Part shown: in pieces, positions 1,511 to 44,466 of the stretch
How positions within the stretch are numbered: the first letter of the stretch is position 1
Layout of the letters: every line of letters begins with the position of its first letter
Source: Candidatus Aquitaenariimonas noxiae
GTDB taxonomy: Bacteria; Omnitrophota; Gorgyraeia; Aquitaenariimonadales; Aquitaenariimonadaceae
Reading direction: 5' to 3'
Assembly (NCBI GenBank): GCA_002780005.1
Contig: PEWV01000075.1
Span: 14,133 to 78,132, forward strand
DNA length: 64,000 bases
The notes under the pieces: model-generated
Databases searched by the model: none
What the model was told of the DNA's origin: nothing
Seen by the model: the letters and a program-made list of their open reading frames with translations, nothing else
Translations under genes and position numbers: made by a program

Positions 1511-1693
1511 TTATTTAACCGATATAGCCTCGACCGGACAGCTTTCAGCTGCATCTTTTAGATCGCAACTCGTGGATTTAAAATCTTTCACGCGAGCTAC
1601 GCTATCGTCGCCCATTTCGAAAACATCCGGGCACGTATCCACGCACAAGCCACAACCCGTACATAAGCTTTTGTCTACTGTAACCTTTGCCAT
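1511..1693 (-). CDS. small 4Fe-4S ferredoxin
   Basis: 60 aa with CTGCGLCVDTCP and a distal CP cysteine. Confidence 0.75.
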   Translation of the reverse strand: MAKVTVDKSLCTGCGLCVDTCPDVFEMGDDSVARVKDFKSTSCDLKDAAESCPVEAISVK

Positions 1694-3381: not shown

Positions 3382-3762
3382 TTACCTCGGGGTTCCTGAT
3401 TTCAAACCTTCTTGATAACCATCTTTAAAACCTGATGCGTAGCCTTCTTGATATGCCTCTTGATACAAGTCGACCGTCTGTGATGTTCTTTGCACCTGTC
3501 GCGGGGTCGGTTCAACCGGAGGATTGTTTCCTTCCGTCATCACATCCAGAAGAACGTTACCGAGAATACCCGTTCCTGCCCCTATCAAAGCGCCCTTACC
3601 TGCTTTTCCGCCGCTAGCCCCAGCTGCTATCGCGCCTGTGCCGGCGCCGAGAAGCCCCTCTCTTAGAATCTTTGACGAATTCTGATCTGCGGCGAGTGCT
3701 TGCACGGTAAAATAGACAAGGCCGAAAGCTAGGACAAATACGACTACTATAAACCTCTTCAT
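3382..3762 (-). CDS. secreted glycine-zipper (Gly-rich) membrane-associated protein, hypothetical
   Basis: N-terminal signal/TM; GAGTGAIAAGASGGKAGKGALIGAGTGILG glycine-zipper stretch. Extended -10 (TGTGTTATAAT) and GGAGG SD upstream. Confidence 0.5.
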   Translation of the reverse strand: MKRFIVVVFVLAFGLVYFTVQALAADQNSSKILREGLLGAGTGAIAAGASGGKAGKGALIGAGTGILGNVLLDVMTEGNNPPVEPTPRQVQRTSQTVDLYQEAYQEGYASGFKDGYQEGLKSGTPR

Positions 3763-10391: not shown

Positions 10392-10991
10392 TTAAGAAAA
10401 TAGGTCCGAGACCTGTAGAATATTACGAAGCCTTATTTTTGTCCTGAAATAAACGGTATTGTTATTGGATGAGAGCGACATGTCAATTTGCACAAATCTT
10501 ATGTCAGTCGCCTGCGGGCTTACTAAAGGAGCTGGGATAACGTCTCCGTTCCCATCCAGGTATGAGAAGGTAAACGAGGAAACGTTTGAAACAAGCGTGT
10601 CGGCTGTGCCGTTATAGCTTCTTTCCAGATTTGATCCGTTAAGCTGGAATTGCATAGTATTATTATCTATGTCGACGAAACTATAGGAGGTAGCATTAGC
10701 TGTGATTACGCTTGTATTGTTTTTCAGACGACGTATCTCACGGCTCATTCTTCTAAAAGCTGTCTCGGCGCTTTGTGATAAATCTTTCCTATGTATGCTG
10801 TACTTATATGAGTCAACCAATTTAATAGCAACAGGGCCGCCGATACCTACTAATAGGCCTATGATAACTATGACCATTATTAGCTCGATCAGAGTAAACC
10901 CCGTTAGAGATGGGTTGTGTTCACCCATCGGACCTTTAATAGTGCTACGTTTAATGAAAAATTTACTTTTATCAATAATTATCTTGACCAT
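10392..10991 (-). CDS. minor (pseudo)pilin with prepilin-type N-terminal cleavage/methylation domain; 30-aa leader
   Basis: Leader ...EHNPSLTG then FTLIELIMVIVIIGLLVG (G-1, F+1, E+5). Confidence 0.8.
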   Translation of the reverse strand: MVKIIIDKSKFFIKRSTIKGPMGEHNPSLTGFTLIELIMVIVIIGLLVGIGGPVAIKLVDSYKYSIHRKDLSQSAETAFRRMSREIRRLKNNTSVITANATSYSFVDIDNNTMQFQLNGSNLERSYNGTADTLVSNVSSFTFSYLDGNGDVIPAPLVSPQATDIRFVQIDMSLSSNNNTVYFRTKIRLRNILQVSDLFS

Positions 10992-11091
10992 TTTTAGTAA
11001 GATATATTTTTATCTCTAACGGGGTAAACCCGTGCTTAGGTTTTAGGTGATAGGTTATAGGTGATAGGTGTTTTAACATTTTTAAATAGAA

Positions 11092-11568: not shown

Positions 11569-12119
11569 TGTATATACACCCTGCCTGTTCCTCTCTCAAC
11601 CATTATATTTTTAGGACCTGTGATCGTTACGTTAGCCGGATTATTAAGCGCGGTACCACTGCCAGAACCGGCATCATAGCTATAGGGGTCCCCCCATTTG
11701 TCAAATGCCAGATCCTTATTGTTGTCATTAAAATAGACCTCTGTTATGTCAATGCCTTGGAATTCGCTCTCGTTAAACTGAACGGTGTAGTTATTTTTCG
11801 TTAATGGGTTGATCACTAAACTCCAATTTCCCGGGGTATCTTCTATGTAGACTGAGTAGCGATGTTGTGACGTGCTAAATGAGATCCGAGTCCTTTTTTG
11901 AATACTTACGGCTAGCGATTGCGCGTATCTTATGTCCGATTGAATTTTTTGCGCTGCCATATCCGAGCGCATAGCCGGCATATCGACCATCCTTGCGCTT
12001 GCCAGAACAGCCAAAATGCCGATAATGGCCATTACCATTATAAGCTCGAGAAGGGTAAACCCCGTTAGAAAGGCCCTACCCTTTTCATCAGGAATTGAAA
12101 TTCTGTTTGTTTCATCCAT
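11565..12119 (-). CDS. minor (pseudo)pilin (GspH/FimT-like); 19-aa leader
   Basis: ...GRAFLTG then FTLLELIMVMAIIGILA. Confidence 0.8.
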   Translation of the reverse strand: MDETNRISIPDEKGRAFLTGFTLLELIMVMAIIGILAVLASARMVDMPAMRSDMAAQKIQSDIRYAQSLAVSIQKRTRISFSTSQHRYSVYIEDTPGNWSLVINPLTKNNYTVQFNESEFQGIDITEVYFNDNNKDLAFDKWGDPYSYDAGSGSGTALNNPANVTITGPKNIMVERGTGRVYIQ

Positions 12120-12234
12120 ACTATCTATAAATCGCGCACCCCATTAAAAAGCATCTTTGTAATGAGATAAAGCTTTCTAACGGGGTAAACCCTCGTTTCA
12201 TATATAACATTTTCGGATGCTTCCCAATTACAGA

Positions 12235-25532: not shown

Positions 25533-26216
25533 TTACTTAAAAATAAAGCCTGTCTGGTTAGACCAGAATAAAAGATCGAGTTCTTCGACCGGAATATTTA
25601 AAGAATCGGAGAATTTTCGCATTTTGCTTTCGATTTCGAGATAGGTTTTTTTCGTTATGGCGCGCGGTATTTCTTTTATAACTTTATATCGCTTTAAATT
25701 CTTCAATATATGTACGTCCAGTATGGACATATTTCTGCCAAGGCCTATATTCCTCAAAAAATGGCTCGCTTCTTTATATCCGAGGCCCTTTACGTTCTTA
25801 ACAAGCCATTCCCTAACTCTAAAAGTATCATTTATATCTAATATTTTCTTTATCTCTATCCTTTTCCCGTGTTTGAAAATATTACGCGCGCCTATCAGGT
25901 AACCTGTCTTATTATTAGGGAACCTGACTTTTTGCAGCTTAGACCTCACGGCGCGCTTGCCGCCATTAAAAAGCAGTCTTGATCTTTTCAGTTCTTTAAT
26001 AGCCTGGCCGCAATAAACTGCTTTTGATTGAGGGGTCAATAAACAAAAACATAGTTCTGAAAAAACATTTTCATCGTCGGATTTGTGAATATTTTCAAAC
26101 TCTTTTAGCCTTTGTTTTATGTGATGCTTTTTATCCTTGTAAACCTTGATCAGGTCTTTCGCCCCGTTAGAAATACAAATTTCTTTACAATTATTATAAT
26201 TATAGCGTTCTGCCAT
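25533..26216 (-). CDS. N-glycosylase/DNA lyase (Ogg2-type 8-oxoguanine DNA glycosylase, HhH-GPD)
   Basis: 227 aa; GYKEASHFLRNIGLG...ILDVHIL HhH region. Start overlaps trxB stop (TAATG). Confidence 0.5.
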   Translation of the reverse strand: MAERYNYNNCKEICISNGAKDLIKVYKDKKHHIKQRLKEFENIHKSDDENVFSELCFCLLTPQSKAVYCGQAIKELKRSRLLFNGGKRAVRSKLQKVRFPNNKTGYLIGARNIFKHGKRIEIKKILDINDTFRVREWLVKNVKGLGYKEASHFLRNIGLGRNMSILDVHILKNLKRYKVIKEIPRAITKKTYLEIESKMRKFSDSLNIPVEELDLLFWSNQTGFIFK

Positions 26217-27145: not shown

Positions 27146-27149
27146 AACA

Positions 27150-27330
27150 CAAATTCCAAATTACAATCTGAATTCGAAATCCGAATATCGAATATCGAAA
27201 CAATATCAAATGACAAAAATTCAAATGATCAAAACTATTGTTTTGGTAATTTGAACATTCTAGTTTCGAATTTGTTTCGGATTTCGTGCTTCGAATTTCG
27301 TATTTTATAACTTTGGTCATTGTTTATTGT
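27150..27330. promoter_or_regulatory. long AT-rich imperfect palindrome with TTCGAA-containing 10-bp-phased repeats, centred on CAAAAC-TATT-GTTTTG (27230-27245)
   Basis: Arms GAATTCGAAATCCGAATATCGAATATCGAAACAA and TTTCGAATTTGTTTCGGATTTCGTGCTTCGAATT are near reverse complements. Lies between the grx stop and trxB start. Confidence 0.5.
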
Positions 27331-27347
27331 ATATTGTAATTTTTTCA

Positions 27348-27587
27348 CTATATTCCCAACGCTTTCCTTATACTTTCTTTATCAAAGCCTACTATGATTT
27401 TACCGTCTATAATCAAAACAGGGACACCCATCTGGCCCGAAACATCTATCATCTCTTGGCCCTTTTCCGGGTTCAGGGATACGTCTATATCCTCAAATTC
27501 TACATTGTTGTCCTTTAAAAACTGTTTTGCTCTGATGCAGTAGGGACAGCTTGGAGTGCTATAAACTCTAACTTTTCTATCCATCAA
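27348..27587 (-). CDS. glutaredoxin-like protein
   Basis: 79 aa with CPYC active site. Confidence 0.8.
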   Translation of the reverse strand: MMDRKVRVYSTPSCPYCIRAKQFLKDNNVEFEDIDVSLNPEKGQEMIDVSGQMGVPVLIIDGKIIVGFDKESIRKALGI

Positions 27588-27603
27588 AACCTCCGTCAGT
27601 AAA

Positions 27604-28128: not shown

Positions 28129-28248
28129 TTATAACTTTTCCATGGGCTCGCCGCAACAAACAAGCTCGCCGCCGCCTACCTTTGTTACCGTAACCTCGTT
28201 ACCGCAAATATTGCATTTATATTTTTCTCCCACTCTTTCTACTGCCAT
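28129..28248 (-). CDS. dsr: desulforedoxin (39 aa), not in ORF track
   Basis: Own translation [39 protein letters not shown]; GGAGG SD 7 nt upstream. Matches the Desulfovibrio gigas desulforedoxin pattern YKCxxCGxxVxV...GGGxLVCCGExM. Confidence 0.75.
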
Positions 28249-32728: not shown

Positions 32729-32790
32729 CAAAACCCCCTTTTAGAATAATTACCGGGCAATTTTTTCATAAAGGGGGTTTTGTCTTTTTT
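32729..32790 (-). terminator. terminator-like hairpin downstream of rubrerythrin
   Basis: AAACCCCCTT (32731-32740) pairs with AAGGGGGTTT (32771-32780); 30-nt loop; U-rich tracts flank both sides. Confidence 0.45.
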
Positions 32791-33380
32791 TAATAATTTT
32801 CGCAAAGTAACTCGTAATAACTCTGAGGGTGCGCGCACGCCGGGCATTCGGCAGGAGCCTCTTTACCTTCATGCACATATCCGCAGTTACGGCATTTCCA
32901 CTTAACTACCGTATCTTTTTTGAATACCTTGCCGTCTTTTATATTCTTCGCTAACTTTCTATATCTTTTTTCATGCTGCTCTTCTACTTCTGCTATTTCT
33001 TTAAATTGCTTGGCTATTTCTTCAAAACCTTCCTTGCAGGCTGTTTCTTCGGCTTCTTTATATAGCTTTGTCCACTCAAGGTTTTCTCCTGACGCCGCGG
33101 CTCCGAGATTTGACATCGTATCCTTTATGATCCCGGCAGGATATGAAGCGATGATCTCTACTTCTCCGCCTTCTAAATACTTAAAAAATCTTTTCGCATG
33201 CTCCTTTTCGTTCTCGGCTGTCTCAAGAAATATCGCTGATATCTGTTCATAGCCCTCCTTCTTCGCGGCAGACGCGAAATAGGTATAACGATTCCTCGCT
33301 TGAGACTCCCCTGCAAACGAAGCCAGAAGGTTCTTTTCTGTCTTTGTCCCCTTCAATCCCTTTGTTTTTGTCAATGCCAT
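32790..33380 (-). CDS. rbr: rubrerythrin (N-terminal diiron ferritin-like domain, C-terminal rubredoxin-like CxxC...CxxC)
   Basis: ExxH pairs plus C-terminal CRNCGY...CPACAHP. Confidence 0.9.
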   Translation of the reverse strand: MALTKTKGLKGTKTEKNLLASFAGESQARNRYTYFASAAKKEGYEQISAIFLETAENEKEHAKRFFKYLEGGEVEIIASYPAGIIKDTMSNLGAAASGENLEWTKLYKEAEETACKEGFEEIAKQFKEIAEVEEQHEKRYRKLAKNIKDGKVFKKDTVVKWKCRNCGYVHEGKEAPAECPACAHPQSYYELLCENY

Positions 33381-38510: not shown

Positions 38511-38540
38511 AATGATACTGTATTAGTATCTTTTTGTCAA
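38511..38540 (-). promoter_or_regulatory. sigma70-like promoter (TTGACA-17-TATCAT) overlapped by palindrome AATGATACTGTATTAGTATC, upstream of rrf2
   Basis: On the gene strand: TTGACAAAAAGATACTAATACAGTATCATTATATT. Near-identical module upstream of the YHS lipoprotein gene at 42164-42194. Confidence 0.5.
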
Positions 38541-40823: not shown

Positions 40824-41375
40824 CTATACTACCCTGCTGATAATATCCGATAAAACCACTATATCCTCCGTGCAGAAGATTTCTTTTACGCTTTGATCAA
40901 AGAGTATGTTCGCTTCGGCTGAAAACTCGTCATCCTGGCCCCATACGGTAACAAGCACGGGCACGAAATCAAAAGCTTCCAATACTATTCCGCCGTCTCC
41001 GTATTGAATGGCTTTTCCCGGTAATCTTTCCAGGCAAGAAACAATACCTTGAGGCATTTTGCCGTATTTACGGCCGATCAACTCAAGGGATCTTTTTTTA
41101 AATGCATCATAATAACCCTGGCCGCCAGGCAACTCCTGGAAAGATATCCACTTTCCGGTAACTTCGGGTAAACCCTGTATTTTTTTAGCCAAATAATGCA
41201 GTATCAAAATAGAAACGTGTTCATGCGGAGGAATGTTGCAGGATAATGAAACAACCTGATGGGAGGATAAATCAATACTATAATTGTCAGCTAAAAATTT
41301 AATATCAGAAATATTATCTGCTTTAAATTCTTTAAGCTTGACCCACGCCTTTTCCAGCGCATCCTTGTAGCTCAT
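40824..41375 (-). CDS. hypothetical protein
   Basis: 183-aa ORF with no motif I can assign; well-formed ORF in operon context. Confidence 0.4.
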   Translation of the reverse strand: MSYKDALEKAWVKLKEFKADNISDIKFLADNYSIDLSSHQVVSLSCNIPPHEHVSILILHYLAKKIQGLPEVTGKWISFQELPGGQGYYDAFKKRSLELIGRKYGKMPQGIVSCLERLPGKAIQYGDGGIVLEAFDFVPVLVTVWGQDDEFSAEANILFDQSVKEIFCTEDIVVLSDIISRVV

Positions 41376-41615
41376 GTTAACTTCTTTTAGACCATCCCGG
41401 CTATTGCCTGTTCCAAGGAAATGGCCGGTATCGCATCTGGTTATTTAGGCTTTGGCTTCTTCTTATCCTGGCAACCGCAGGTTTTGCACATACTTTCCTC
41501 CTTTTTCATTTAATCGGGCTATCTTATTCTACCAATAATTCTTATATATATTTTAGCATACAGCAAGAAGCTTGGAAACTTATTTTTGAAACATAATTAA
41601 TAAAAATAGTGGGCA

Positions 41616-41677
41616 GTTTACCCCGTTAGAGATTTATTCTCCAACGGGATAAACCCCAATCTCTAACGGGGTTTAAC
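41616..41677. repeat. hairpin built from two inverted copies of the ATCTCTAACGGGGT motif (14-bp perfect stem, 25-nt loop containing a third degenerate copy)
   Basis: ACCCCGTTAGAGAT 41620-41633 and ATCTCTAACGGGGT 41659-41672. Confidence 0.8.
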
Positions 41678-41815
41678 GTCGTGCCCGGGACTTAATACCG
41701 CAGCCCTCTTTACAATGGGCGACTGGACGTAGCATGTATCTAACATTTACCCACATATATCCTCCTTATTTTCTTAATTTGTTTTATCTTCAAAAGTGGA
41801 AAACTCTACTTTTCC

Positions 41816-42135
41816 TTAATTGGATGCTGCCTTCAGTTTTGTCGAATATTTCTCAGGATCGGCTTTAAAAACATCTGCACATGACGGGCAACAGAAACCC
41901 ACTGTCTTACCTTTATACTCAGTCGTATAAGGAGTATCTCCCGAAACCTTTCCTCCCAAAACCGGGCATTCGGTATTATAAACCTTGCCTTTCTCTACCG
42001 TACTAGCCGCGCCTGCGGCGCAACTAACTCCGGTTGCTCCTTGGGGGCCGCTTGATCCGCATCCTGCGTAGGCCCCTGCGGCAAAAAATGTCAACGTTAT
42101 GATCGCTATCAGAGCTATTAGTATAGTCTTATTCA
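41816..42135 (-). CDS. YHS-domain lipoprotein (putative metal-binding)
   Basis: Start revised to MNKTILIALIAI... (GGAGG SD). The longer ORF-track start would overlap purF. Lipobox-like AGAYAGCG; C-terminal YHS/TRASH (GFCCPSCADVF). Confidence 0.6.
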
Positions 42136-42163
42136 TATTGTTCACCTCCTCTTTACTTACTAT

Positions 42164-42194
42164 GTAATGATACCATATTAGTATCATTATGTCA
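42164..42194 (-). promoter_or_regulatory. sigma70-like promoter (TTGACA-17-TATCAT) overlapped by perfect palindrome TAATGATAC-CATATTA-GTATCATTA, upstream of the YHS lipoprotein gene
   Basis: Same architecture and near-identical half-sites as the rrf2 upstream module at 38511-38540. Confidence 0.5.
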
Positions 42195-42203
42195 AGAAGA
42201 AAA

Positions 42204-43581: not shown

Positions 43582-44394
43582 TTATATCCTCACAGGAATG
43601 CCTCTATCCTTAAGGTATTCCTTTGCCTCTCTGATCGAATATTTCCCGTAATGAAAAATAGATGCCGCAAGAACGGCATCAGCCCTGCCTGTTGTTAGCG
43701 CCTCATAAAGATGTTCTAAATCCCCTGCGCCGCCCGATGCTATAACCGGGATATTTACGGTTTCTGATATAGCCTTTGTCAGCTTCAGGTCATAACCCGC
43801 TGTCGTTCCGTCCATATCCATGCTGGTAAGCAGGATCTCGCCGGCCCCTGATCGTTCTGCCTTTTTTGCCCATTCGACCGCGTCAAGGCCGACCGGTTTT
43901 CTACCGCCGTAGGCATATACTTCCCATTTCTTTTTTTTGCTATGGACTATGGACTGTGGGCTGTGGACTAACTTCGCGTCTATGGCAACCACTATGCACT
44001 GGCTGCCAAATTCCTCGGATGCTTCTTTAATCAATGTAGGGTTTTCTATTGCCGCTGTATTTATAGAAACCTTATCGGCCCCAGATTTCAAGAGCTGTCT
44101 TATATCGCTTATATTTCGAATGCCGCCTCCAACCGTCAAAGGTATAAAGACCTGCTCTGCTGTTTTTATGACCACATCTAAAAATGCCTGGCGTTTTTCA
44201 ACGCTTGCTGTTATGTCTAAGAATACTACTTCGTCCGCGCCTTCTTTGGAATAGAAGGCTGCTGTCTTGACAGGGTCTCCCGTGTCTTTAAGGTCCAGGA
44301 AATTAATACCCTTCACAACTCTTCCGTCTTTTACATCCAGGCATGGTATTATTCTTTTAGTCAGCCCCGTTAGAAACTTAGCTCTTTCTACCAT
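43582..44394 (-). CDS. hisF: imidazole glycerol phosphate synthase cyclase subunit HisF
   Basis: [16 protein letters not shown] ... full HisF barrel. Carries the N-terminal extension [13 protein letters not shown] and an internal [14 protein letters not shown] segment encoded by heptamer repeats. Confidence 0.9.
43941..43968. repeat. 4 x 7-nt tandem repeat T(A/G)TGG(A/G)C inside hisF, next to a T8 run (43931-43938)
   Basis: TATGGAC TATGGAC TGTGGGC TGTGGAC. Confidence 0.8.
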
Positions 44395-44466
44395 AATATT
44401 TATTCTCCATCCCCATTAAGAAAACATAAGCCATATTCAGCAAACCAAAACGTTTCTAACGGGGTT
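44365..44466. repeat. inverted pair of the CCCCGTTAGAAAC / GTTTCTAACGGGG motif bracketing the hisF start codon
   Basis: 13-bp perfect inverted repeat: 44366-44378 (inside hisF codons 6-10) and 44452-44464 (5' UTR). Confidence 0.8.

Follow-up and report, generated by a model that had tools for sequence, protein, structure and literature searches.

We analysed a 64,000-nt stretch of the Candidatus Aquitaenariimonas noxiae genome (contig PEWV01000075.1), hereafter called the window, in which every gene lies on the minus strand. Our main subject is a short open reading frame, sORF1, together with an RNA structure predicted at its 3' end. sORF1 lies in a gene-free gap (41376..41815) bounded by a gene for a 106-residue YHS-domain protein (41816..42136, minus strand), immediately upstream of sORF1, and a DUF3786 gene (40824..41375, minus strand), downstream of it. 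An earlier note had described the gap as the largest between genes in the window; since the rival gap at 27146-27603 holds a gene for a 79-residue glutaredoxin-like protein, it is about the largest that is free of genes. The genes around it include those for YHS, DUF3786, Tpx, a PEP-utilising enzyme, Rrf2, Fer4, VIT1, DJ-1, rubrerythrin and desulfoferrodoxin, and this content (YHS, Tpx, Rrf2, Fer4, VIT1, rubrerythrin and desulfoferrodoxin) bears out the description of the region as a metal/redox island.

sORF1 (41673..41756, minus strand) consists of 27 codons and a TAA stop, encodes MWVNVRYMLRPVAHCKEGCGIKSRARR, and is preceded by the Shine-Dalgarno (SD) sequence AAGGAGG (41761..41767, minus strand), 4 nt before its ATG. 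A second short frame in the same gap, sORF2 (41441..41491, minus strand), encodes MCKTCGCQDKKKPKPK and has the SD sequence AAAGGAGG at 41497-41504, 5 nt before its ATG. All coordinates, SD spacings and peptides that the earlier note had given for the two frames were recovered when re-derived from the window sequence. Upstream of the YHS gene is a promoter, TTGACA-17-TATCAT (42167..42195, minus strand), which encloses the palindromic operator TGATACTAATATGGTATCA and heads the unit containing sORF1. Given this position of the operator, the local unit begins with the operator, continues with YHS and sORF1 and goes on to the other genes.

To see how sORF1 evolves, five nearest relatives were chosen via the neighbouring DUF3786 protein (62-68% identical) and not via sORF1 itself. 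A sORF1 of 25-27 codons was present in all five, either adjoining the YHS gene or upstream of DUF3786, with the peptides MRATIKYMLRPVAHCKEGCSILSWARR (locus L008), MRVTTRYMLRPVAHCKEGCSILSWA (L010), MNVTVRYMLRPIAHCKEGCSS (L012), MKVTIKYMLRPVAHCKEGCCNRSRARR (L093) and MYATIRYMLRPVAHCKEGCSSGSWA (L094). The core of the peptide, codons 7-19, reads YMLRPVAHCKEGC in the window and has the consensus [YWF]-M-L-R-P-V-A-H-C-K-E-G-C. Among the six genomes, 3, 0 and 11 of the 13 core codons vary at the first, second and third positions, respectively, and pairwise comparison of the core gives 91 synonymous versus 5 non-synonymous differences, the 5 all being V/I exchanges. Conservation of the frame and of its cysteine spacing in relatives, which the earlier note had proposed as a check, is thus what we find for sORF1.

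A metagenome scan with the pattern YMLRP[VI]AH matched 453 stretches, 419 of which were confirmed, and 80 loci were fetched. Codon-level statistics on the family come from 73 unique sORF1 sequences. All copies begin with ATG and nearly all have a strong SD. Outside the search pattern, Thr4 is encoded by ACC, ACT, ACA and ACG in 20, 20, 14 and 12 cases, respectively, and the CKEGC segment varies at third positions alone; Leu and Arg codons switch within their six-codon families. Residue 20 is Ser in 51 of the 73 members, and the codon for this Ser is AGU in 50 of the 51. Protein-level selection together with the strong SD argues for translation of sORF1. Wherever the neighbours of family copies could be named, they belonged to Candidatus Omnitrophota.

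Predicted protein sets hold little of this family. A 41-residue extended sORF1 query returned 3 matches among 5.8 billion predicted proteins, and a search with a hidden Markov model (HMM) of 1.84 billion representative proteins returned 59, nearly all of them tiny ORFs; this latter result led us to reject the idea that sORF1 is the remnant of a larger gene. The diverged members among the HMM matches share the wider motif [YWF]-[MR]-[LI]-R-x-[VIA]-[AST]-H-C-x-x-G-C. Neither Pfam nor NCBIfam contains a match to sORF1, the PDB holds no chain matching its peptide at E<=10, a full-text literature search did not find the core motif, and a search of the literature on Rrf2 in Omnitrophota found nothing relevant. 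When genome contigs were scanned with the DUF3786 protein, the single match was a Spirochaetota locus, 29% identical. Taken together, the conservation indicates that sORF1 is real and a member of a large, never-annotated micro-ORF family with hundreds of metagenomic copies, mainly in Omnitrophota.

Protein-level conservation occupies codons 1-19 of sORF1, and codons 22-27 double as part of an RNA structure. From codon 22, the sequence TCC CGG GCA NGA CGT TAA ACT GCC C is kept at all three codon positions, and for codons 23-30 entropy is near zero at all three. In-frame stops are tolerated within this stretch, being found at codon 22 in 4 sequences, at codon 24 in 2 and at codon 26 in 13. Conservation at all three positions combined with tolerated stops points to selection acting there on RNA. 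The 3' segment, made up of the last codons and the next 8 nt, fits a 27-nt H-type pseudoknot with stem 1 (S1) UGUC/GACG, loop 1 (L1) CC, stem 2 (S2) GGGCA/UGCCC, a loop 2 (L2) of 1 nt and loop 3 (L3) UUAAAC, which places the sORF1 stop codon in L3. On the minus strand of the window, the predicted 5' arms are AGUC for S1 (41689..41692; the family consensus is UGUC) and GGGCA for S2 (41682..41686), followed by the S1 3' arm GACG (41677..41680) and the S2 3' arm UGCCC (41611..41615). This last arm is displaced 55 nt by an insertion, discussed below, of a 51-bp core plus one TAAA, and is followed by ACUAUUUUUAUU.

Covariation among 69 distinct sequences is consistent with this fold. Pairing is possible in 94.7% of pseudoknot pairing cells, versus 87.5% in 500 shuffles, none of which attains the observed figure, and 32-44% with the partners slid. 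Changes on both sides occur in 6 of the 9 pairs (3 of 4 in S1 and 3 of 5 in S2). Within S1, pair 15-28 is GC in 57 sequences and CG in 12, with no mispairs, and pair 16-27 is UA in 68 and CG in 1; the compensatory changes in S2 are GC to AU and GC to UA. The loop adenines A32-A34 are invariant. In the fetched loci the pseudoknot consensus occurs in 55 copies, 54 of them directly after sORF1, with the 55th (locus L036) lying past an inserted element. The last sORF1 codons therefore fit a predicted H-type pseudoknot whose two interleaved helices each carry compensatory changes.

Three independent palindromic insertions fall within this structure: that of the window in loop L3, one in L3 at locus L024 and one in L1 at locus L036. 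None hits a stem, and restriction of the insertions to loops fits selection on the pseudoknot helices. The elements at L024 (~676-737) and L036 (~1985-2062) are unrelated palindromes that entered independently. A different inverted repeat (GGGGACGTTTCACTTTG...) lies directly downstream of sORF1 at L094 (~150-295) and upstream of DUF3786 at L010 (5115-5275). It appears that the pseudoknot/terminator region attracts palindromic insertions.

S2 is 5-7 bp long and is followed by a U-rich tract (>=5 T in 7 nt) in 41 of 71 loci, and a terminator scan of the window found a weak 5-bp site at 41623..41611 and nothing else at the pseudoknot. Rfam gave no match in the window at the gathering score, and none at sORF1 in nine loci at E<=1. 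RNAalifold on 31 full leaders returned a single weak, non-conserved helix in the coding region. A signal for -1 programmed frameshifting was considered and rejected, as no conserved slippery heptamer (X XXY YYZ) precedes the pseudoknot at 5-9 nt; codons 19-22 read UGC AGU AUY NNG, and codons 21-22 are variable.

Members of the family usually follow closely on a conserved promoter/palindromic operator and precede an Rrf2 regulator or redox/metal genes. In 49 of 89 loci from other genomes, a near-consensus promoter enclosing the palindrome TGATAC-N5-7-GTATCA sits 15-40 nt ahead of sORF1, and the next gene begins about 40 nt after it (15-100 nt in most loci). The window holds two copies of the palindrome TGATAC-N7-GTATCA inside a near-consensus promoter, one upstream of YHS (42167-42195, minus strand) and one upstream of Rrf2 (38513-38540, minus strand); as this operator also precedes sORF1 in those 49 loci, it is presumably the Rrf2 autoregulatory site. 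The gene following sORF1 encodes an Rrf2 regulator in the majority of loci, with a gene for a Fer4 (PF27217-type) protein coming after it, and otherwise a rubredoxin, Hcp, a flavodiiron-like protein, a flavin reductase, an FNR-like reductase, DUF3786, a flavodoxin-like protein, a rhodanese, a NicO-like protein or GH5. sORF1 stands beside a YHS gene in the window and at loci L008, L010, L042, L077, L085, L093 and L099.

Diverged members extend this picture. One (L096) adjoins an HMA/CopZ-like gene, and another (L099) lies between an RND pump gene and YHS. A third (P0175, contig JGI 3300072015, MTKVALKRWMLRPIAHCSEGCQPQSWVRR...) is placed between genes for an ArsR-type regulator and a methyltransferase on one side and for a CdhD-domain protein and an 89-residue ferredoxin on the other, and its CdhD and ferredoxin layout resembles hgcA-hgcB (mercury methylation). 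The high-GC member L095 (307-440) stands alone: it contains a hairpin and a strong intrinsic terminator (GCCCCCGC...GCGGGGGC plus T6), its neighbour is convergent, and its frame meets no stop ahead of the terminator. We read L095 as a non-stop message or else as a small gene standing by itself; in its relative L098 the ORF stops right after ...GCSI. True terminators separate sORF1 from Rrf2 at some loci (L087 and L016).

One subfamily of sORF1, MKVT[IV]HYMLRPVAHCKEGCS[LI][SG]SRARA, has S1 changed to GCUC/GAGC and a GH5 glycoside hydrolase as the next gene (loci L043-L050, L068, L074, L076, L080 and L090). At most of these loci the GH5 ATG lies 15-18 nt past the sORF1 stop and is not preceded by an SD, a spacing that suggests translational coupling to sORF1.

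What might such an arrangement do? The reading we favour, tentatively and on the strength of geometry and conservation, is that sORF1 and its pseudoknot act as a ribosome-dependent leader or attenuator. The mRNA entrance of the ribosome lies at about +11/+12 from the P site. With Cys19 in the P site, S1 of the pseudoknot would start at +11/+12, that is, at this entrance, and the conserved 13 residues would still fill the exit tunnel. A ribosome that pauses at codons 18-21 and one that continues to the stop codon in L3 would then leave the pseudoknot and U-tract in different states of folding. Expression of the downstream genes would follow from that state, at the level of transcription or translation, making the leader a second layer of control atop the Rrf2 operator. 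Conservation runs in step with this proposal: the residues that would occupy the tunnel (codons 7-19) are conserved as protein, and the switch to RNA-level conservation comes at codons 20-22. Amino-acid conservation that ends at Cys19, with frame and stop free beyond it, is the pattern expected of a pause or arrest at codons 18-21. In most loci sORF1 lies behind a promoter/operator and ahead of the next gene, as a leader would; given the strand bias this is weak evidence, and L095 lacks a gene downstream.

Several observations weigh against a leader. Co-directionality with the downstream gene carries little weight, since all window genes are on one strand. Many of the pseudoknot compensations occur within single clades and so represent few independent events, and S2 contains a C-A mismatch in 11 sequences. 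The U-tract is moderate in frequency (41 of 71 loci) for genomes that are AT-rich, and RNAalifold on the 31 full leaders detected no conserved helix that could act as an antiterminator or sequester the SD. A stop in L3 is not universal, since the diverged L096 and L099 change frame within the pseudoknot or lack the stop codon. For the stand-alone L095, which carries a terminator of its own beside a convergent neighbour, there is no evident target of regulation in cis. In the window itself, 297 nt separate sORF1 from the next gene and contain the insertion, a promoter-like site and sORF2, so that any cis link may have been lost there.

A close and quite possible rival is that sORF1 encodes a trans-acting micro-protein of 20-27 residues, in which His14, Cys15 and Cys19 bind a metal or serve in a redox or partner peptide. 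Its partners would be YHS, HMA or Rrf2/Fe-S proteins, and the pseudoknot would be a mere structured 3' end, a terminator or an mRNA stabiliser. The strict amino-acid conservation of three potential ligands, the beta-strand-like stretch [VI]-T-[VI]-[RK]-Y-M-L and the very strong SD all suit such a product, as do the recurrent metal-gene neighbours (YHS in 8 loci, the HMA/CopZ-like gene at L096, RND pumps, and ArsR plus CdhD/Fer4). So does the isolation of some copies, namely L095, which carries a terminator of its own and is followed by no co-directional gene, and the copies that a true terminator separates from Rrf2 (L087 and L016). However, a generic terminator needs neither invariant loop nucleotides nor a second interleaved helix, features that are conserved here although the flanking proteins are only ~50% identical. 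The C-terminus of the peptide is also unconstrained, ending at 20, 21, 23, 25 or 27 residues or extending 30-60 more, and amino-acid conservation ceases exactly 7 nt ahead of the RNA structure. The use of AGU for Ser20 in 50 of 51 members suggests an RNA or codon-level constraint, and the Pfam, NCBIfam and PDB searches gave no homologue among annotated or solved proteins. The earlier note had offered two roles, metal-binding micro-protein and regulatory leader peptide; for sORF1 both remain live, and both could be true at once.

Comparison with known systems brings out what would be distinctive about a sORF1 leader. The sensory arrest peptides TnaC (tna leader), SpeFL, SecM and ErmCL control a downstream Rho site or hairpin through the position of the ribosome. 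Like them, sORF1 is a short, SD-led ORF (about 24-34 codons) ahead of genes that it may regulate, with a block of 10-20 residues conserved to a defined codon. Unlike them, it has no sequence similarity to a known peptide (Pfam, NCBIfam and PDB), some members stand alone, and the RNA partner is an H-type pseudoknot that overlaps the last codons and has the stop in a loop; for sORF1, stalling and any ligand are hypothetical. Riboswitch aptamers of the preQ1-I and SAM-II types are small H-type pseudoknots with an A-rich loop 3. The sORF1 structure shares with these its size (27 nt), two short interleaved helices, an L1 and L2 of 1-2 nt, an invariant A-rich L3 and a location before a U-tract or the next gene, but it lies inside a translated ORF and matches no Rfam model even at E<=1. 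Classical amino-acid attenuators, such as trpL, hisL and the Cys leaders of Actinobacteria, likewise place a stem and U-tract behind a translated leader. In contrast to these, sORF1 lacks a run of regulatory codons, its only two Cys codons standing apart, its 13-residue core is conserved throughout, and RNAalifold detected no terminator/antiterminator alternative. An attenuator responding to Cys codons was accordingly rejected, there being merely two such codons, apart from each other, in a core that is conserved as a whole.

sORF2 presents a separate case. It has 16 residues, MCKTCGC followed by a Lys/Pro tail, and an in-frame ATG further upstream, at 41509, overlaps its SD and is a less likely start. 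A promoter-like site with TG, TTTCCA-17-TAAAAT (41550..41578, minus strand; extended -10 type, consensus match only), lies upstream. The N-terminal pattern M-C-x2-C-G-C corresponds exactly to profile positions 1-7 of the HypB N-terminal high-affinity Ni/Zn site. Matches to the NCBIfam HypB_prefix models NF053667 and NF053668 cover positions 1-12 (E~0.01), scoring 16.5 and 16.9 bits versus cut-offs of 35 and 30; sORF2 differs from HypB in falling below these cut-offs, in having no GTPase domain and in being a stand-alone 16-residue ORF. The earlier note had linked the two sORFs by a shared C-x2-3-C-G-C signature. This likeness proves coincidental: position 20 of sORF1 carries Ser in 51 of the 73 members, and sORF2 is unrelated and HypB-N-terminus-like.

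It is possible, though doubtful, that sORF2 is a chance ORF, produced where a purine run resembling an SD and an ATG happen to meet in an AT-rich spacer. The frame has only 16 codons, its HypB_prefix scores are far below cut-off, and, unlike sORF1, it is absent from the corresponding gap position in all five closest relatives, so that the conservation named as a check in the earlier note was not found there. Loose counterparts exist elsewhere. One, MCKSCGCTAKKKKKKKKKK, has an SD and lies at L008 (11875-11934) ahead of a 59-residue Zn-ribbon ORF and a ZIP transporter; the other, MGCGKCSCGSKKKKKKAKKK, lies at L013 (2310-2372) after Rrf2 and before genes for a Met-rich membrane protein, a rubredoxin and a reductase. 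Their gene contexts differ, as does the Cys pattern at L013, and the family so far amounts to 3 loose examples.

Chance is harder to reconcile with the start-site statistics. Perfect AGGAGG-N4-8-ATG sites number 8 in the window versus 2.2 expected, a count attained by none of 100 shuffles; they all lie on the coding strand, each ahead of a gene start. Two of the 8 are those of sORF1 and sORF2, the latter with AGGAGG at 5 nt, and the other six precede genes for a 60-residue ferredoxin, a 39-residue desulforedoxin-like protein, desulfoferrodoxin and YHS and the genes 3382..3762 and 32790..33380. An ORF starting M-C-x2-C-G-C occurs twice in 467 kb versus 0.016 expected, both times with an SD and a Lys-rich tail, and the extended -10-type promoter-like site stands upstream of sORF2. 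The perfect SD, the promoter-like site and the loose counterparts together make sORF2 probably real, and, on weaker support than for sORF1, we regard it as probably a separate translated Cys3/Lys-rich micro-ORF of HypB-N-terminus type with a promoter-like site of its own. SD-led, Cys-rich poly-Lys micro-ORFs also occur in other Omnitrophota redox/metal clusters (L008 and L013). Small genes that are easily missed are found elsewhere in the window as well: those for the 60-residue ferredoxin (1511..1693, minus strand) and the 39-residue desulforedoxin-like protein (28129..28248, minus strand), both with a perfect AGGAGG, and that for the 79-residue glutaredoxin-like protein (27348..27587, minus strand).

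We now turn to the insertion in L3, which corresponds to the motif hairpin of the earlier note. The hairpin with its third, degenerate motif copy is present where that note had placed it, with a stem of 15 bp and a spacing of 23 nt in place of 14 bp and 25 nt. Its arms (41620-41634 and 41658-41672) are 15 nt each and 100% complementary, the third copy (41637-41650) matches at 11 of 14 positions, and the sORF1 stop (41673-41675) abuts one arm. The palindromic core, CCCCGTTAGAGAT...ATCTCTAACGGGG, spans 51 bp (41621..41671, no strand assigned) and is flanked by two copies of a TAAA target duplication, the left one (41672..41675, minus strand) containing the sORF1 stop TAA and the right one at 41617..41620 (minus strand). 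At about 70 orthologous sites the hairpin is missing and the flanks are contiguous as GACGYTAAACTGCCC. When the RNA is folded with the insertion in place, S2 still closes (-39.2 kcal/mol, z = -4.1).

The element is one of a dispersed set. At <=3 mismatches the 14-nt motif has 13 matches in the window versus 4.0 expected; it occurs 9 times in the window and once in ~430 kb of other genomes, where it looks like a chance match. Three further full copies (10899-11024, 12060-12185 and 44365-44464) interrupt the 5' ends of two type IV pilin-like genes and hisF, and in the pilin genes the insertions lie exactly at the G|F prepilin cleavage codons. Excision in silico of the core and one 4-nt flank restores all three reading frames, yielding MLKHLSPITYHLKPKHG|FTLIEL... 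and MLYMKRG|FTLLEL..., each with an intact prepilin leader, and a canonical HisF start that overlaps the hisH stop as ATGCTGA. As they stand, the three interrupted genes have an ATG inside the element and an ...LTG encoded by its terminal repeat, and both pilins still pass TIGR02532. The four element pairs have perfect arms of 13-15 nt sharing CCCCGTTAGA(G/A)A, core lengths of 51, 100, 126 and 126 bp, and no coding capacity; three copies are flanked by TAAA and the fourth by CTGA/CTAA. Internal sequences of the four align poorly, and the case for a common origin is made by their ends and flanks and by a stretch, GGAGAATAAAT, that two of the copies share. A half-copy of the motif (ATTTCTAACGGGGC) stands alone at 26161-26174 (minus strand), close to the 5' end of ORF 25533..26216 and without an inverted partner in the vicinity.

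These comparisons indicate that the hairpin is a 51-bp element resembling a miniature inverted-repeat transposable element (MITE), inserted with a TAAA duplication into L3 in the window's lineage only. MITE-type palindromic elements are found in transcribed or coding DNA in other bacteria, as Neisseria Correia elements, Rickettsia palindromic elements (RPEs) and enterobacterial repetitive intergenic consensus (ERIC) sequences. The likeness lies in the size (51-126 bp), terminal inverted repeats of 13-15 bp, a short target duplication, the presence of several copies, RNA hairpins and tolerance within genes; the window element differs in its repeat sequence, in its 4-bp TAAA target and in replacing the N-terminus of three genes with its own ATG and an in-frame ...LTG. 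We consider it very improbable that the hairpin is instead native to the locus, as an intrinsic terminator, an invertible phase-variation segment or a transcription-factor site. A perfect 15-bp stem right after the stop and the strong fold (-39.2 kcal/mol, z = -4.1) would suit a native structure, and the same inverted repeats bracketing the 5' ends of two pilin genes form a classic phase-variation setting. Yet about 70 orthologous sites are empty, TAAA direct repeats flank the element, and no U-run follows the hairpin itself. Inversion restores no frame and precise excision restores all three, on which ground an inverton was rejected, and arm spacings of 23, 74 and 100 nt are unfit for dimeric DNA-binding, which eliminates a transcription-factor site. 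The role of terminator or regulator of sORF1 that the earlier note had suggested for the hairpin is thus not borne out, given its absence from the orthologous sites, its TAAA flanks and its membership of a dispersed insertion family; the native structure at that 3' end is the predicted pseudoknot, on which the note is silent.

We give almost no credence to a last alternative, that the sORF1 region is a purely non-coding RNA (a riboswitch or small RNA) with an incidental open frame: its 3' third is clearly selected as RNA and folds, but the codon-position pattern refutes this for codons 1-19, the differences in codons 7-19 are 91 synonymous versus 5 non-synonymous, Leu and Arg codons switch within six-codon families, every member has an ATG, and Rfam has no match.

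The fusion of sORF1 and predicted pseudoknot is widespread and un-annotated, and Pfam, NCBIfam, Rfam and PDB all lack a match to it. The Omnitrophota are an abundant group of bacteria, for the most part uncultured, whose gene regulation is essentially unknown, and sORF1 copies head operons for oxygen, nitrosative and metal stress in them, overlooked by gene callers (3 of 5.8 billion predicted proteins) despite hundreds of metagenomic copies. A single short stretch bears protein-level and then RNA-level selection, back to back, and to our knowledge few cases exist of a conserved nascent peptide coupled to a conserved pseudoknot. Short palindromic mobile elements are seen here to enter the loops of functional RNA and the 5' ends of genes, where they supply a new start codon. 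The sORF1 system is small and easily tested, either for ribosome-RNA-peptide sensing or as a new His/Cys micropeptide. Going further, it is conceivable, though unlikely, that sORF1 and its pseudoknot represent a new class of translational sensor, in which a 13-residue nascent peptide with a His-Cys-x3-Cys triad would respond to a metal ion or oxidant by stalling the ribosome. If so, the stall would coincide exactly with the arrival of a 27-nt pseudoknot at the mRNA entrance and its outcome would gate Rrf2-controlled redox/metal-stress operons. The operons so controlled would be spread over Omnitrophota and further groups, one copy of the sensor lying upstream of an HgcAB-like pair.

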